Source: an uncultured Candidatus Peribacteria bacterium
Lineage (GTDB): Bacteria > Patescibacteriota > Gracilibacteria > Peribacterales > Peribacteraceae
Reading direction: 5' to 3'
DNA length: 64,000 nucleotides
Assembly: GCA_964391185.1 (NCBI GenBank)
Contig: CAYMIX010000002.1
Location: forward strand, 90,968-154,967
Shown here: one piece after another, positions 11,276 to 62,763 of the stretch
Layout of the letters: every line of letters starts with the position of its first letter
Position numbering within the stretch: position 1 is the stretch's first letter
The notes under the pieces: model-generated
The model's input: only the letters and a program-made list of their open reading frames with translations
Databases searched by the model: none
What the model was told of the DNA's origin: nothing
Position numbers and translations under genes: made by a program

Positions 11276-11881
11276 ATGCCCGTATTTGATCCACGTCTAT
11301 ACCGTCAAAAATACAGAAATGACACCATTCGCATGCGCGGGTGGGATTACGCCGGAACCGGATCATATTTCATTACGATCTGTACCGATGGGCGGGTACC
11401 GTGGTTTGGGGAAATACGACATGGGGTGATGGGGTTGTCGGGGATTGGGATGACCATTGATGAATATTGGCGATCGATACCAAATCATTTTGCGCACGTT
11501 AAATTGGATGAATTTGTGGTAATGCCCGATCATTTCCATGGAATCATTATCATGCAAAACCGCGCGCCGTCCGTTGTTGGACCGTCGTCATCGTTTGTAG
11601 AGACGTGCGAATCGCACGTCTCTACGACAATGCGGCCAACGACGGCACGGGGCGATACGAACGATAATTCATCCCATCATATCCCCCGTCCCAAACCCGG
11701 ATCATTGGGATCCATCATCAATCAATATAAATCCATGTGCACCAAACGCATTCGCCAAATGGGCCACGACAATTTTGCGTGGCAACCGCGATACCATGAA
11801 CATTTGATACGTTCAGAATCGGAAATGATCCGCATCAGAAAATACATCGTCGATAATCCATCGCAATGGAACGACAAATAA
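11276..11881 (+). CDS. REP-associated tyrosine transposase (RAYT, IS200/IS605-like HUH Y1 transposase)
   Basis: WDYAGTGSYFITICT, HUH motif MPDHFHGIII, C-terminal RKYIVDNPSQW (catalytic Tyr region). Confidence 0.8.
   Translation: MPVFDPRLYRQKYRNDTIRMRGWDYAGTGSYFITICTDGRVPWFGEIRHGVMGLSGIGMTIDEYWRSIPNHFAHVKLDEFVVMPDHFHGIIIMQNRAPSVVGPSSSFVETCESHVSTTMRPTTARGDTNDNSSHHIPRPKPGSLGSIINQYKSMCTKRIRQMGHDNFAWQPRYHEHLIRSESEMIRIRKYIVDNPSQWNDK
11597..11625 (+). repeat. perfect hairpin inside the RAYT gene, starts with GTAG
   Basis: GTAGAGACGTGCG-AAT-CGCACGTCTCTAC (13-bp stem). Outer CCGTCGT/ACGACGG arms extend it to 11583-11647. Confidence 0.8.
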
Positions 11882-15910: not shown

Positions 15911-17995
15911 ATGATGTCCTTACTGAACCCAACATCGGTCGCCGTGATCGGCGCTTCTGCCCAGGAAGGCAAAGTTGGGCATGATGTGCTGAAAAATTTG
16001 GTCACGCAGGGGTATGAAGGCCCAGTGTTCCCCATCAATCCAAAAGGTGGAGAGATTTTGGGAAAAACTGTGTACGTTTCCATCAAAGACACATCAATTG
16101 TTCCAGACCTCGCAGTGATCGTGATCCCCGGAAAACTGGTTCCAGATTCACTCAAAGAATGTGGTGAACGCGGCATCAAAAACGTGATCGTCATCAGCGC
16201 AGGATTTGGCGAAGTGCATACAGAAGAAGGAAAAACATTAGAGAAGCAACTCATCGATATCGCACATCAATACGGTATCACGTTGATCGGACCAAACTGT
16301 CTTGGAATTGTCCGACCAGGCATCAAGATGAACGCATCGTTTGCGAAAGAACTTCCACCTGCTGGGAACATCGCGGTTATCTCACAATCAGGTGCGATGG
16401 GTGTAGCACTCATGGACGGAGCGATTGGTTTCGGACTTGGATTCTCTGCATTCGTGAGTGTTGGCAACAAAGCAGTCATCGATGAATCAGCAATGCTCCG
16501 CATGATGGCGGATGACACAGAAACCAAAGTGATTGGGTTCTATCTCGAGAGCATCAAAGACGGTCAGAAATTCTTGGAAGCAATTGATTATGCACACAAC
16601 AAGAAATCGATCGTGCTGCTCAAGGCAGGTGTTTCTGAACATGGTCGTGCTGCCGCATCTTCGCACACGGGTGCACTTGCTGGAAGCGATGCAGCTATCG
16701 AGGCATTGTGCGCACAGACAGGAATCCATCGTGCACATTCAACGGAAGAATTCTTGGATCTCCTCAGTGTTCTTTCATTGGAACCAACGCTCCCAAGTAA
16801 CCGCATTGCAATCATCACCAATGCAGGTGGACCTGGCATCCTCGCGACGGATGCGGCAGAAATGAAAGGACTGAAAATGCCTGCGCTTTCTGCCCTCATA
16901 GAAGCCGACCTCAAAACAAAACTCGTTCCAGCTGCGAGCACCGCAAACCCAATTGACGTGATTGGTGATGCCGGAGCAGACCGCTACGAAGCAGCAATTC
17001 TCGCATGTAAAAAGGATCCAAATATTGATGGTATCGCTGTGCTCCTCACACCTCAGGTCATGACGCCGGTGGCAGATGCTGCACGTGCAATTGTAAAGGT
17101 AATGAAGGATGTGCCACTAATGCCAGTGGTGACTGCGTTCATGGGTGGAGAATCTGTGCGTGAAGGAAAGAAGATTCTGCGCGAAGCAGGAATCCCAACA
17201 TTTGCGACACCCGAAAGAGCAATCAATGCACTTGCTGCGTTGCGCGCTAAAGCGTGTCACCCTGAGCGCGACGAAGGGCAGACACGCGGTTCTATGGTTC
17301 GCCGAGCTCACCATGACACCGCGCAAGAATTACTAAAGAATCACAGCGGGCTCTTGGACGAAGAAACCACGACGAAACTCTTCGAACTGTACGAATTGCC
17401 GATGCCAAAGGCCGCACTCACACACACCGCAGAAGATGCTGTGCGCATCGCAGAACAGCTTGGGTATCCGGTGATTATGAAGATCAGTTCTCCGCAGATT
17501 TTGCATAAGACGGACATGGGTGGCGTGCGTGCGAACATCAAGAATGCAGCTGAGGTTACACTCGCCTTCCGCGACATCATGAGTGCAGTCCAGGAAAATG
17601 CTCCGACTGCAGACGTGAAAGGAATTTTGGTTCAGCAATTCTTACCTGTTGGAAATGAATTCATCGTCGGTGCTGTCCACGATGCATCATTTGGTCCGCT
17701 GATTATGGCTGGCCTCGGTGGTATTTACACAGAACTCTTCCGCGATACCGCATTCCGCATTGCCCCTGTCACAACAGACGAAGCGTACCGCATGCTCACA
17801 GACCTGGAAGCATGGAAGCTCCTGCTTGGTATGCGCGGCAAAGCACAGTCAGATATCGAAGCATTCGCCGGTCTTATTAGTCGCGTTTCTCAAATGGTCA
17901 TCGATTGTCCCCAGATAAAAGAACTCGACCTCAACCCCGTTCTTGTCCGAAGTGATGGACTCACAGTGGCGGATGCGAAAGTCGTGCTTGGTTAA
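15911..17995 (+). CDS. ADP-forming acetyl-CoA synthetase (acetate--CoA ligase), fused alpha/beta
   Basis: LNPTSVAVIGASAQEGKVGH CoA-binding domain, succinyl-CoA-ligase-like middle part, C-terminal ATP-grasp. TATAAT 15902-15907 puts the likely start at ATG 15914/15911, not 15803. Confidence 0.85.
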   Translation: MMSLLNPTSVAVIGASAQEGKVGHDVLKNLVTQGYEGPVFPINPKGGEILGKTVYVSIKDTSIVPDLAVIVIPGKLVPDSLKECGERGIKNVIVISAGFGEVHTEEGKTLEKQLIDIAHQYGITLIGPNCLGIVRPGIKMNASFAKELPPAGNIAVISQSGAMGVALMDGAIGFGLGFSAFVSVGNKAVIDESAMLRMMADDTETKVIGFYLESIKDGQKFLEAIDYAHNKKSIVLLKAGVSEHGRAAASSHTGALAGSDAAIEALCAQTGIHRAHSTEEFLDLLSVLSLEPTLPSNRIAIITNAGGPGILATDAAEMKGLKMPALSALIEADLKTKLVPAASTANPIDVIGDAGADRYEAAILACKKDPNIDGIAVLLTPQVMTPVADAARAIVKVMKDVPLMPVVTAFMGGESVREGKKILREAGIPTFATPERAINALAALRAKACHPERDEGQTRGSMVRRAHHDTAQELLKNHSGLLDEETTTKLFELYELPMPKAALTHTAEDAVRIAEQLGYPVIMKISSPQILHKTDMGGVRANIKNAAEVTLAFRDIMSAVQENAPTADVKGILVQQFLPVGNEFIVGAVHDASFGPLIMAGLGGIYTELFRDTAFRIAPVTTDEAYRMLTDLEAWKLLLGMRGKAQSDIEAFAGLISRVSQMVIDCPQIKELDLNPVLVRSDGLTVADAKVVLG
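17254..17320 (+). repeat. family A palindromic repeat inserted in frame in the acd interdomain linker
   Basis: GTGTCACCCTGAGCGCGACGAAGGGC...ATGGTTCGCCGAGCTCACCATGAC. Translated as CHPERDEGQTRGSMVRRAHHDT. Confidence 0.75.
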
Positions 17996-19093: not shown

Positions 19094-19170
19094 GTAAGGA
19101 GGGTATGGGGTGTAAGGAGAGTTTTGGGGGTTACCCCCATTACTCCCCAGACCTTCATTACCCTCCTTAC
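19094..19170. repeat. family C imperfect palindrome
   Basis: GTAAGGAGGGTA (19094-19105) pairs with TACCCTCCTTAC (19159-19170). Inner GGGGGTTACCCCC hairpin. Confidence 0.75.
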
Positions 19171-22120: not shown

Positions 22121-22191
22121 AAGTAATAAGGGTATTGGGGGTATTGGGGGTAAGGAGGGCACCCTAAATACACCCCATACTCCCCTTACTT
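22121..22191. repeat. family C imperfect palindrome in the infC-rpmI spacer
   Basis: AAGTAATAAGGGTATTGGGGGTATTGGGGGTAAGGAGGG ... ATACACCCCATACTCCCCTTACTT. Confidence 0.75.
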
Positions 22192-23757: not shown

Positions 23758-23787
23758 TTTGCCCTTCGTCTCCGCTCAGGGTGACAC
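23758..23787. repeat. family A half-element (reverse orientation)
   Basis: Reverse complement is GTGTCACCCTGAGCGGAGACGAAGGGCAAA. It supplies the last codons and TGA stop of the gene ending at 23776. Confidence 0.7.
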
Positions 23788-24387
23788 TTTTTGGTTGATG
23801 ACGAACTGAAGAACGAACGGCGAATGGAATGAACCATCGTCCAATTGTTCACGAGTGAAGGAAGGTTTATCGAGATCGGAAATAAACGAAAGTTTGGAAA
23901 CTTCTTCGACAAATGCAGCAAGTACCGTCATCGATCGAGTACCGATATTTCGCACATCACCTTCGACGGTGACGCTTAATCCATCAATCGAGATTTTGGA
24001 GACTGCTACGGCGTCTGCTTCGTCACCCAAGCGCGATGCTGCCTGGCGCAATTCTTCACGTATATCTGTAAGTGAAAGCTGTCCGATTTTTTCCTGTTTG
24101 AGAGCGGTGTACGTTTCATCGGTGATTGGCAAAACCAAACGCACGCGTTCGCCTTCCTGTTGAGAAAGGTCCGCTGCCAATTGTTTCTGATATGCAACGA
24201 TCTGACGTGGGTTCATCGAAAGACCACTCTGCTGATGGAGTTGCGTGAAGCGTGGCAGAAGGAATACATAGGAGATCAATAACAACGTAAACAGCACACC
24301 CGAAAACGTGAGCATTGGCATGGCCATTCGCTCTACGATTGCAGCTTTGAGAGGAGCCGTTTCTGGTGTTTGTTCGAGTTCAGACAT
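23776..24387 (-). CDS. PilN-like (fimbrial assembly) membrane protein
   Basis: N-terminal TM LTFSGVLFTLLLISYVFLL, coiled coil, C-terminal alpha/beta domain. Topology-level call only. Confidence 0.4.
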   Translation of the reverse strand: MSELEQTPETAPLKAAIVERMAMPMLTFSGVLFTLLLISYVFLLPRFTQLHQQSGLSMNPRQIVAYQKQLAADLSQQEGERVRLVLPITDETYTALKQEKIGQLSLTDIREELRQAASRLGDEADAVAVSKISIDGLSVTVEGDVRNIGTRSMTVLAAFVEEVSKLSFISDLDKPSFTREQLDDGSFHSPFVLQFVINQKVSP

Positions 24388-50174: not shown

Positions 50175-50268
50175 GTCACCCTGAGGTGCCCGCACTATGG
50201 ATTCGGGGCTCATCGTCGCTTCGCTCCGATTCGCACCTCACCATGACGTGCGGGCCTCGAAGGGTGAC
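50175..50268. repeat. family A composite palindromic element
   Basis: GTCACCCTGAGGTGCCCGCAC ... GCACCTCACCATGAC GTGCGGGCCTCGAAGGGTGAC. Confidence 0.8.
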
Positions 50269-53050: not shown

Positions 53051-53090
53051 ACTCCCCATACCCCCATTACCCCCAACACTCGCCTTACTG
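53051..53090. repeat. family C half-element (C-rich arm)
   Basis: ACTCCCCATACCCCCATTACCCCCAACACTCGCCTTACT. Confidence 0.65.
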
Positions 53091-60387: not shown

Positions 60388-60487
60388 GTCCTTCGTGGCT
60401 CGCGACGATGTGTCATGGTGAGGTGCCCCGTCGAGGGGCCACGAACCATCACATCGCTCGCACCTCAGGATGACACCCCTTCGGCGC
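60388..60487. repeat. family A composite element (reverse orientation)
   Basis: Reverse complement reads GTGTCATCCTGAGGTGC..ATGGTTCGTGGCCCCTCGACGGGGCACCTCACCATGAC..CGAAGGAC. Confidence 0.75.
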
Positions 60488-60509: not shown

Positions 60510-62324
60510 ATGTGCGGTATCGCCGGACTCTCCGGAGAACATCGGCAAACGATTGAAGCGATGACCAACTGTCTGGTCCATCGCGGTCCTGACGGTAATG
60601 CGATTTGGACCGGAAACGGAGCAAGCTTGGGCCACGCTCGCCTCGCAATCTTGGACCCTCGCCCTGAAGGTGATCAGCCAATGTGGAATGACGATAAAAC
60701 GATTGCGATCGTCTACAACGGAGAAATCTACAACTACCGCGAACTCCGCGACATCGAGAATCTGAAGTGTAAAACCACAACTGATACAGAAGTGATCCTA
60801 AAGCTCTACGAAAAGTACGGAACAGATTTCATTCACCGACTCCGCGGAATGTTCGCTTTCGGTATGTACGATACGAAGAAAAAGCTATGGACGCTCGCTC
60901 GCGACAGCAAAGGAATTAAGCCGCTCTTCATCGCACATCCGAATAATCAATTAGCTTTTGCATCCGAAATGCGAGCACTGATGCGCGCAATGCCAAGTAA
61001 GCCTGCAATTAACATGACTGCGCTCTCGCAATATATGCGATTGCAGTATGTTCCGGGTCCTCAAACGCTGTGTGTAGGAATTGAATCCTTGCCCCCAGGA
61101 ACAATCTTGGAATGGCATGAGGGTACTGAGACCCGAAAGAAGTTTGAACCAAAGGAAGAGGCCTCGTATGCATCCAAGAACGATTTTAAGGAACACTTCC
61201 CGACTGTAATGGACGATATTGTTCATCAACATTTAGTTTCTGATAAACCGGTTGGTATTTATCTCAGTGGAGGAATCGATTCATCGGTCGTGTTGCACCA
61301 CATGAGTAAACACGCAGCAAAGCCGATCAAGACGTTTACTGTACGTTTTGATGCAACGGAAGAAGAAGGTTCTGCGCGCTTTAATACTGATGCCGAACTG
61401 GCGAAGAAAACCGCAGAACATTACGGAACAGATCATCATGAAATATTCCTCACAGCGGAAGCTTATAAAGATCTCTATAAAGAAACCGCTCGAGCACTCG
61501 ATCAACCAAATGCAGACTCTGTGTCAGTGGCTCAGGTATTGCTTTCCCGTGAAGCAAAGAAGCACGTCGACGTTGTGCTCACCGGCGCGGGAGGTGACGA
61601 ATTATTCGGCGGCTATCCACGCTATCGCATTGCTCGTGTGCTCCAGGCAACTGGCCTGATTCCATCAATGGTTCGATCGCAAACAGGAAAGATCATGGGC
61701 TATCCGCATGATGTCTTGGCGATGACGCCTGGTGCACGACTTGCGGAACGATTACTCGCACGGCCAATGAGTGAACTCACACCGATTATCAAAGGCGAAT
61801 GGCTCGATGAATCAGCGACGACAAAACTCTTCGCAGAAAGGTTCGATGCACTTAAGACTTTTGATCCTGTCCGCGCCTTCATGGAATTCGATCGTCACTT
61901 GTGGCTGATCGATGAATCATTACGCCTCGCTGATGCAACAACAATGGCACACGGCGTCGAAGCACGCGTTCCGTTTGTAGACGAGCGAATCATTGCCGCA
62001 TCGCACGCAACGCCTGCGGCTTGGCACGCAACACTAACGAAGACGAAAGCACTACTCAAAGATACGTACCGCGGAATTCTTCCAGATCATCTCTATACAT
62101 TGAAGAAGGCTTCATTCTATCCCCCGCTCGCCAAGTGGCTCCGCCGCGAAGCTGCACCGCTCGCAGAAGAAATGATCGCAAACAAACGCATCCAGGAATT
62201 GTTTGATGCAGAGGAACTGCAGAAAGAATTCTATGAACACCGCGAGAAAAAGGTGTATCGGTTGCACACGCTCCAAGCACTTATTCAACTAAGTAACTGG
62301 TTTGAGACGGTGTATGACGCTTAG
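60510..62324 (+). CDS. asnB: asparagine synthase (glutamine-hydrolysing)
   Basis: MCGIAG N-terminal nucleophile, SGGIDSS PP-loop. TATAAT-N6-ATG. Confidence 0.9.
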   Translation: MCGIAGLSGEHRQTIEAMTNCLVHRGPDGNAIWTGNGASLGHARLAILDPRPEGDQPMWNDDKTIAIVYNGEIYNYRELRDIENLKCKTTTDTEVILKLYEKYGTDFIHRLRGMFAFGMYDTKKKLWTLARDSKGIKPLFIAHPNNQLAFASEMRALMRAMPSKPAINMTALSQYMRLQYVPGPQTLCVGIESLPPGTILEWHEGTETRKKFEPKEEASYASKNDFKEHFPTVMDDIVHQHLVSDKPVGIYLSGGIDSSVVLHHMSKHAAKPIKTFTVRFDATEEEGSARFNTDAELAKKTAEHYGTDHHEIFLTAEAYKDLYKETARALDQPNADSVSVAQVLLSREAKKHVDVVLTGAGGDELFGGYPRYRIARVLQATGLIPSMVRSQTGKIMGYPHDVLAMTPGARLAERLLARPMSELTPIIKGEWLDESATTKLFAERFDALKTFDPVRAFMEFDRHLWLIDESLRLADATTMAHGVEARVPFVDERIIAASHATPAAWHATLTKTKALLKDTYRGILPDHLYTLKKASFYPPLAKWLRREAAPLAEEMIANKRIQELFDAEELQKEFYEHREKKVYRLHTLQALIQLSNWFETVYDA

Positions 62325-62382
62325 CAGAATGGTTCGTCGGGCTCACCATGACACAAGACGTGTCACCCTGAGCGCGGCGAAG
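62324..62382. repeat. family A element flanked by a 15-bp direct repeat
   Basis: ATGGTTCGTCGGGCTCACCATGAC..GTGTCACCCTGAGCGCGGCGAAG. GGTGTATGACGCTTA occurs at 62309-62323 and 62383-62397. Confidence 0.8.
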
Positions 62383-62394
62383 GGTGTATGACGC

Positions 62395-62763
62395 TTAAGA
62401 ACGTTTGGGAATCTTTAGAGCCATCGGTGGGAAAGGTGCAGCTGCATAAACTACTTTCTGCTTACTTCCATCATTTTGAGTTCGCAACTGAATAGAGAAA
62501 TGTTTCGCTCTAACTCTAGTAACAAGATGGATCCCCACTTGGTGTTCTTTGAAAAAAAGCTTACATCCAGATCGCTGGATAACTTCACGAATCCTTTCAA
62601 TTTCTTCTGCAGAAGCCTCTATAGGAAATTTTCGCCCCTCCAAACTAGCAAACCATCGATTGAGCCTTTCAAGAACCGGCTTCATAATAGCATCAATCCC
62701 TTCAATGAGACTATCAGCTTGTTCTTGAACTGATGCCAAAGAATCTGGAAGATCCGCGTCCAT
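62395..62763 (-). CDS. hypothetical protein (122 aa), AT-rich orphan
   Basis: TTGACA-N18-TAGTAT promoter ending 9 nt before the ATG. No family recognised. Confidence 0.45.
   Translation of the reverse strand: MDADLPDSLASVQEQADSLIEGIDAIMKPVLERLNRWFASLEGRKFPIEASAEEIERIREVIQRSGCKLFFKEHQVGIHLVTRVRAKHFSIQLRTQNDGSKQKVVYAAAPFPPMALKIPKRS

Follow-up and report, generated by a model that had tools for sequence, protein, structure and literature searches.

An in-frame doublet of palindromic repeats in the interdomain tether of a fused acyl-CoA synthetase from a Peribacteria genome

A REP doublet at the domain junction of a fused acyl-CoA synthetase gene

We analysed a 64,000-nucleotide stretch (hereafter the window) of contig CAYMIX010000002.1 from an uncultured Candidatus Peribacteria bacterium, in which two inverted repeat units of the repetitive extragenic palindrome (REP) type lie within a gene for a fused ADP-forming acyl-CoA synthetase (ACD). 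The gene is located at 15911-17995 on the plus strand and has 694 codons. Its product carries the Pfam domains CoA_binding_2, Succ_CoA_lig, Ligase_CoA_2, and ATP-grasp_5, and its top match in the PDB is 8wzu_A, a fused ADP-forming 4-hydroxybutyrate-CoA ligase (E = 1e-148). Together with matches to 4xyl_A and 4xyl_B and an AlphaFold model derived from 24 aligned sequences (mean predicted local distance difference test score, pLDDT, 85; predicted template modelling score, pTM, 0.79), these matches identify the five-domain architecture of the fused alpha-beta NDP-forming acyl-CoA synthetases. The order flavodoxin, pyruvate:ferredoxin oxidoreductase (POR), ACD is kept in most of the related loci fetched (locus L053 differs), and the gene and its neighbours fit a putative acetate-forming, ATP-yielding acyl-CoA synthetase. 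Judged by the names of its homologues, the organism belongs to Peribacteria/Peregrinibacteria within the candidate phyla radiation (CPR). The source genome, denoted G000, is a metagenome-type assembly of 1.48 Mb in 31 contigs. ACD homologues, with 685-700 residues, are equal in length to the window protein.

The two halves of the protein are delimited by structural matches. The alpha-subunit-like half (residues 1-448; 15911-17254, plus strand) ends with ..ERAINALAALRAKA and is matched by 4xyl_A, the alpha subunit of a split archaeal enzyme, over residues 3-448 and by 2csu_A over residues 5-446. The beta-subunit-like ATP-grasp half (residues 472-694; 17324-17992, plus strand) begins with AQELLKNHSGLLDEE and is matched by 1wr2_A over residues 472-693, by 4xyl_B over residues 480-693, and by Pfam ATP-grasp_5. 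Since the alpha match ends at 448 and the beta match starts at 472, the 22 residues C449-T470 encoded by the doublet fill exactly the gap between the halves, at the junction where the first-pass annotation had placed the element. The frame from 17255 translates as CHPERDEGQTRGSMVRRAHHDT with no stop codon, so one fused chain is the only reading that the sequence allows, and the element is in frame, as first read. The same annotation had expected a disordered linker. In the AlphaFold model the pLDDT falls below 50 at residues 449-452 and 454-460, i.e., over most of residues 449-460, and the part encoded by the first repeat unit is predicted to be disordered. A helix is predicted at residues 461-475; it begins in the residues encoded by the second unit and continues into native sequence where the beta-like half starts.

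At window positions 17254-17323, two units of a REP family with a TGTC tag form a canonical inverted doublet, which is 62 bp long. The bases at 17254-17320 read exactly as first quoted, with both motifs of the repeat family. What had been taken for two half-motifs are both present, but as two complete inverted hairpin units. Unit A (17254-17285, plus strand) reads GTGTCA-CCC-TGAG-CGCGA-CGAA-GGG-CAGACAC and encodes CHPERDEGQT. Its strict core spans 17256-17278, with the strict-pattern match at G000:C2:108223-108242; its loop, CGCGA, recurs in the intergenic copy C8:7001, and RNA folding gives a local hairpin. Unit B (17294-17319, minus strand; strict-pattern match G000:C2:108265-108284) reads GTGTCA-TGG-TGAG-CTCGG-CGAA-CCA-T. 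On the plus strand it is ATGGTTCGCCGAGCTCACCATGACAC, which encodes MVRRAHHDT and agrees with the intergenic copy C6:80010 at all 26 nt. When reverse-complemented, unit B (GTCATGGTGAGCTCGACGAACCAT) follows the layout of unit A (GTCACCCTGAGCTCGACGAAGGG). The spacer between the units (17286-17293) forms with 17319-17323 a predicted outer stem, CGCGG/CCGCG, around unit B, and such a spacer-plus-flank stem is also found in the intergenic doublets C6:79974 and C4:87355. The in-gene doublet is a convergent CCC/TGG pair with 16-nt spacing, as in five other doublets of the genome. Its nucleotide similarity to the intergenic copies survives formal alignment, with 33 invariant columns in a MAFFT alignment of the in-gene copy and four intergenic doublets of G000. 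Because the two arms differ in their 3-bp stem, the doublet folds as two local hairpins rather than as one long hairpin. A known RNA family was ruled out: neither the whole window at gathering thresholds nor 17150-17420 at E <= 1 matched any Rfam entry.

A dispersed family of TGTC-tagged hairpin units

The general unit of the family can be written as TGTCA-NNN-TGAG-(5-6-nt loop or nested hairpin)-CGAA-N'N'N' and measures 22-23 nt; each hairpin combines a conserved UGAG/CGAA internal motif with a variable 3-bp stem. Within the window, GTCACCCTGAG occurs in five copies with at most one mismatch, against 0.58 in shuffled sequences, and none of 100 shuffles reaches five. In the whole genome, GTCACCCTGAG and CTCACCATGAC have 27 and 50 exact copies, respectively, where fewer than one of each would be expected by chance. 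The strict pattern GTCANNNTGAGN{5,6}CGAA has 52 matches in G000 and the reversed control pattern has none; relaxed rules yield about 90-93 units. A T precedes all 52 strict units (TGTCA), 42 of which read GTGTCA, and longer composites of the family also start with ACGTCA. The strict search placed no condition on the pairing of the two triplets. They are fully complementary in 45 of the 52 units, compared with a mean of 16 and a maximum of 28 in shuffled pairings. The stem types are TGG/CCA (19 units), CCC/GGG (17), TCC/GGA (7), GCC/GGC (1), and CAC/GTG (1).

Of 48 simple units, 26 form 13 doublets, six convergent and seven divergent, with no tandem arrangement. Every one of the 13 is inverted and joins a TGG unit with a CCC, TCC, GCC, or CAC unit. 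Some units have another hairpin or an entire nested unit in place of the loop, and the resulting composites measure 85-90 nt. Judged by these features, the doublet in the ACD gene is a REPIN-like heterodimer of a TGTC-tagged REP family spread in G000 and its relatives. A literature search for a related repeat sequence string gave no match.

Most copies are extragenic: 41 of the 52 strict units lie outside ATG-initiated open reading frames (ORFs) of at least 120 codons, and the mean density in non-ORF DNA of G000 is about one unit per 5 kb. As first reported, the other copies in the window (at about 23762, 39295, 50176, 60389, and 62330) all lie between ORFs. The copy at 23762-23784 (minus strand) is a single unit with a CCC stem and the loop CGGAGA, and the TGA within it (CCC-TGA-G) is the stop codon of the minus-strand ORF 24387..23776. 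The copy at 50176-50264 (plus strand) is a nested composite of 89 nt with the order A-left, B-like, A-right, and that at 60389-60473 (minus strand) is a nested composite of 85 nt in which a TCC outer unit encloses a TGG unit. At 62330-62384 (plus strand), a divergent doublet, TGG unit then CCC unit, directly follows the stop codon of the upstream gene. This doublet is bracketed by a 14-bp direct repeat, GTGTATGACGCTTA, at 62310-62323 and 62384-62397, the first copy of which contains the stop codon of the upstream gene (60510-62324). The repeat is a possible target-site duplication, an unusual feature if mobilisation was of the IS200/RAYT type (RAYT, REP-associated tyrosine transposase).

The linker in orthologous genes

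The orthologues of the ACD gene in other Peribacteraceae (labelled P0002 to P0117 below) differ in what occupies the linker. The insert had been expected to be absent in relatives. This holds for the nearest homologues, P0002 and P0003, which have no doublet, and for P0008, which has at most a decayed remnant; several more distant orthologues do have doublets there. The motif pair lies in the linker columns of P0004, P0006, P0018, P0019, and P0030, for example as CHPELDEG..MVRRAHHDT in P0004 and CHPEPVEG..ILRQAQHDK in P0006, and the DNA of the orthologues shows intact or nearly intact REP units. A private recent insertion lacking in all relatives is ruled out by these motif pairs and by the equal length of the homologues. 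Altogether, roughly 10% of 120 orthologues carry a doublet in this linker. In a tree built without the linker columns, the doublet-bearing genes are scattered and stand beside sisters with unrelated linkers (or with the P0008 remnant).

The conservation of the element is out of step with that of its host gene. Among six doublet-bearing genes, the mean identity within the element is 84% at the nucleotide level and 80% at third codon positions, whereas the rest of the same genes shows 62-73% and 35-49%, respectively. Descent under protein selection cannot explain the element. Furthermore, the repeat variants follow the genome rather than the gene. The in-gene loops of G000 are CGCGA and CTCGG, and loops of its family are mostly CNCGA. 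In G042, the genome of P0019, the in-gene loops are CTCGT and CCCGT and the genome's own family has C[CT][CT]GT; the in-gene unit B there has the stem TGC/GCA, which recurs in seven further units of G042 and is absent from G000. The in-gene loops of P0030 are CTTGC and CCTGC. These patterns indicate that each in-gene copy carries the repeat-variant signature of its own genome.

Other orthologues differ in subfamily, frame, or orientation. The linkers of P0084, P0037, and P0026 hold a doublet of a subfamily with 6-nt loops (GCCGCT and GGCACT). P0055 has a doublet with CGGAGN loops in another frame (VTLSGAEER..FDSAHHDR). In P0080 the doublet is flipped, so that the TGG unit leads and a reversed CCC unit follows, and reads PVMVSSSNHD..ALRRAQGD. 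Because subfamily, frame, and orientation differ in this way, the doublets of orthologues are separate acquisitions or overwrites rather than an inherited linker, and they do not refute the first reading of the element. By these comparisons, REP doublets have entered the ACD linker at least four separate times.

ACD linkers without a REP doublet consist of other repeat-like DNA (L031:1351-1500; L004:2821-2952; L003:2797-2940). In the P0117 linker the heptamer GGTCACC stands three times in tandem and once more, inverted, further downstream; the G003 linker (L004) has a AGCCACTAG..CTAGTGGCT palindrome, and the G002 linker has CCGCAC/GTGCGG hairpins.

Allele swap and other in-gene copies

A pair of nearly identical alleles allowed the exchange of the linker to be seen at close range. 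P0084 and P0117 differ by one nucleotide over the first 1295 nt of the gene and then diverge over about 100 nt (nt 1295-1397), a tract made up of the TPERAVAAMAAL (TPERA) codons, which show about ten synonymous changes, plus the linker. Recombination thus exchanges the linker over the short times that separate strains. The same swap pattern is found at the protein level between P0026 and P0040. A second mosaic tract between P0084 and P0117 lies in the ATP-grasp half (nt 1659-1724 of the L030 gene), where the surrounding DNA has only isolated single-base differences. It reads ..NVQKSHNSLPITHNQSPTING.. in one and ..NVQKSQ--LPITNNQLPVING.. in the other and corresponds to a variable loop (columns 590-610 of alignment A1).

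Outside the window, a conserved motif of the SufB protein of G000 (C1:7390-7412, locus L032) reads CHPELVEG from tgtcaccctgagctcgtcgaaggg, a perfect REP unit. The peptide aligns without gaps to DHPELVRKY of E. coli SufB, which rules out an in-frame insertion. In relatives the motif is (Q/E)HP(E/D)LV(K/Q)(K/Q) and is written with other codons, gagcaccccgagctcgtcaagaaa being one example. The SufB unit appears to be an overwrite of native sequence that was already similar.

Three further genes of G000, also outside the window, contain units of the family. In a CarA-like gene (G000:C3:23797-23831), a TCC-type unit is read backwards as PFDSAQDD, a 7-residue insert relative to solved structures of the CPS small subunit and CPS1. 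A MutY-like gene (G000:C3:3848-3937) contains an in-frame nested composite of 90 nt (..ACHPSRHRHVMVRSESERSDDEPRTIGGAPQDDV..) just before its WHAALMDYG motif. A PP-loop (MurL-like) gene (G000:C4:91011-91092) has in frame a CAC-stem unit and a duplicated TGG unit (CHTELGEVRHKEGMVRGSSELTMTPHHDT), four residues before the PP-loop.

RAYT-like genes and a second repeat in the window

A RAYT-like gene (IS200-type Y1 transposase fold), a candidate mobiliser of the REP units, lies at 11276-11881 on the plus strand (201 codons), 4 kb upstream of the ACD gene. Its product scores 64.5 bits against NCBIfam REP_Tyr_transpos (NF047646), below the 80-bit cut-off, and 24.6 bits against Pfam Y1_Tnp, above the 23-bit cut-off. 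It has the HUH motif HFH and the segment ..WQPRYHEHLIR.., and its central part contains about 50 additional residues of low complexity. A second RAYT-like gene of G000 (L021:1459-1893) scores 85.4 bits against NF047646. In relatives such genes are multi-copy, and the highest number of matches per genome is 19.

Another repeat, GTAAGGAGGGTATGGGG / CCCCATTACCCC.., occurs as an inverted pair of 38 nt shortly past the end of the gene that follows ACD, and again at two further sites. Its positions in the window are 19094-19170, 22132-22159, and 53061-53088.

A tolerated and repeatedly overwritten doublet as the probable explanation

The explanation that we consider probable is that a REP doublet is tolerated in the interdomain tether of the ACD gene and that this tether is recurrently overwritten. 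The tether would be the only part of the gene free of structural constraint, with no role beyond its length, so that any stop-free sequence could survive there while an active REP population keeps landing in it. The doublet-encoded peptide would be just tolerated as a spacer with no function of its own, and the copy in G000 is presumably young. Either transposition or a short-patch event with other copies as the source (gene conversion or recombination) may have placed it there, and the mobilising enzyme could be one of the genome's RAYT-like transposases. The conversion route has some support, because the tract exchanged between P0084 and P0117 extends into conserved flanking codons and because of the apparent SufB overwrite. 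The comparison of orthologues indicates a permissive site that is repeatedly written over rather than an ancient conserved insert.

Several observations weigh against this explanation. The nearest ACD is only about 72% identical to the window protein, so that an empty site and the date of the event cannot be shown in this lineage. The linker occupancy of about 10% exceeds what the mean non-ORF density of REP units suggests, and there may be some site preference or selection for doublets at the ACD linker. The hairpins are not predicted to fold significantly more stably than shuffled sequence (z = -1.4 for RNA and -1.1 for DNA); hairpin stability was dropped as evidence on this account, the covariation of the stems being the better evidence. 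No unit of the family adjoins either RAYT-like gene of G000, and the number of RAYT-like genes does not track the REP count among 40 relatives. The idea that REP count follows RAYT presence was rejected, given that G002 and G004 lack any RAYT-like match despite their 42-45 units and that G009 has seven matches and no unit. With neither flanking REPs nor tracking counts, the mobiliser is unproven.

The rivals to a tolerated, overwritten doublet fare less well. The first is exaptation, in which the doublet is kept for a function: mRNA hairpins that pause the ribosome, a processing site, the ATG of unit B as the start of a separate beta-like chain, or a needed peptide. It might draw on the recurrence of palindromic or repeat sequence of several kinds in the linker (REP doublets, the P0117 heptamers, the L004 AGCCACTAG palindrome), on an occupancy that looks higher than the genome-wide non-coding density, on the in-frame ATG given by unit B in five of the six doublet-bearing genes, and on the helix predicted at residues 461-475. 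However, sister genes remain intact with linkers that are unrelated but about equally long, the ATG is replaced by ATA in L024, no ribosome-binding sequence is evident in the spacer, and the fold z-score is unremarkable. With two orientations and several frames, neither a peptide nor a single defined RNA strand is conserved. A specific function is disfavoured because intact genes hold the doublet in either orientation and in several frames or have a wholly unrelated linker, and we regard exaptation as unlikely. The first-pass annotation had called the tether either tolerated or exapted; the former stands and is the better word, and no evidence supports the latter.

Also unlikely is a single insertion in the common ancestor of the Peribacteraceae ACD genes, passed on by vertical descent, nearly intact in a few lineages and decayed in the rest. 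It would account for what six genes have in common, namely unit A ahead of unit B, one frame (CHPE..EG ... MVRRAHHD), and a downstream boundary at 7-8 codons from SGLLDE, the latter following it. It would also account for the similar linker lengths with and without a doublet, and for the spacer ACACGTCT common to P0019 and P0084. Yet the gap in third-position identity between the element and its surroundings needs a force other than descent. As a main story, an ancient insertion is ruled out by loops of both units that change together to match each genome's own family, by the flipped doublet and the other reading frame in other genes, by a tree in which only one member of each of several clades has the doublet, and by near-identical alleles with different linkers (P0084 and P0117). 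Finally, it is scarcely credible that the in-gene doublet is an artefact of contigs joined through a shared repeat: repeats are classic join points in a metagenome-type assembly of 31 contigs, but the doublet is only 62 bp long, the frame is kept, both halves belong to one orthologous gene in a conserved gene order, and independent NCBI, JGI, ENA, and Logan assemblies have doublets at the same place.

Taking the overwriting of the linker one step further, we tentatively suggest, as a possibility short of a probable one, that REP units act as sequence overwriters. Short-patch conversion from dispersed copies would repeatedly rewrite stretches that already resemble them, keep the in-gene copies matched to the genome's current variant, and turn the ACD linker into a landing pad that renews itself. 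Even conserved protein motifs could be recoded in this way, with SufB as the example. If so, REP families would be a steady source of protein change in reduced genomes, independent of transposition.

The tolerated and overwritten doublet suggests that, in a CPR genome as small as 1.5 Mb, a REP population can still have the activity needed to invade coding DNA, and that an interdomain tether may behave like intergenic DNA that need only stay in frame. The repeated filling of one linker, in two orientations, several frames, and otherwise identical alleles, provides a natural series for palindromic repeats that create or replace protein sequence. For annotation, the peptides CHPExxEG and MVRRAHHD in these genomes are best read as repeat read-through and not as protein motifs.

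Comparison with known repeat systems

The doublet resembles Rickettsia palindromic elements (RPEs) in behaviour only. RPEs (Ogata et al. 2000, as reviewed in PMC10969869 and cited in PMC3733652) are palindromic repeats in frame in housekeeping genes, read through at fold-compatible sites, and represent the classic example of such behaviour; the shared feature is an in-frame palindromic repeat translated as an extra peptide. By that description, RPE-1-type elements are about 100-150 bp long and Rickettsia-specific, whereas here a 62-bp doublet of 22-nt units resides in a free-living-type CPR genome and one linker has been struck repeatedly in different lineages. Organism, length, and sequence all set the doublet apart from the RPE families.

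With the REPIN-RAYT system (Bertels and Rainey 2011, PMC3116915; PMC3337134) the doublet shares two inverted REPs with a short spacer, a within-genome population, and the presence of RAYT-like genes. The differences are that the arms here always differ in the 3-bp stem (TGG vs CCC or TCC), and that the RAYT-like genes are unflanked by repeats and multi-copy in relatives rather than single-copy. A cognate RAYT flanked by its REPs, which defines that system, is absent from G000. The signs that bear on mobility are indirect only, namely independent doublets at one locus and the 14-bp direct repeat around the doublet at 62330-62384.

The closest likeness is to the CGTC-tagged REPs of Di Nocera, De Gregorio and Rocco 2013 (PMC3733652). 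The available text of that paper describes a tag that is often TGTC, a stem of 8-9 positions, and a loop of 4-5 nt, in repeats that are mostly extragenic and mostly inverted dimers, often heterodimers, with negligible head-to-tail arrangements. A minority lies wholly inside ORFs as dimers encoding 20-30 residues, no flanking dedicated transposase is evident, and Rickettsia RPE-4 and RPE-6 are equated with CGTC families. The family studied here is similar in its 52 of 52 TGTCA tags, its 13 of 13 inverted heterodimers, its 22-residue insert, and its extragenic bias. As far as that text describes them, the element agrees with CGTC/TGTC REPs in every feature compared (tag, size, copy number, extragenic bias, inverted heterodimers, and insert length). 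It differs in its host, a CPR bacterium (Peribacteria) of a group not named in the available text of PMC3733652, and in the UGAG/CGAA motif with a co-varying 3-bp stem and the 85-90-nt composites, which are not in the supplementary text; no TGAGC or CGAAGG string occurs in that supplementary text. Intragenic REP dimers encoding 20-30 residues were thus already known; what goes beyond them here is the repeated independent filling of one linker across a bacterial family, the swap of that linker between otherwise identical alleles, and the apparent overwrite in SufB.

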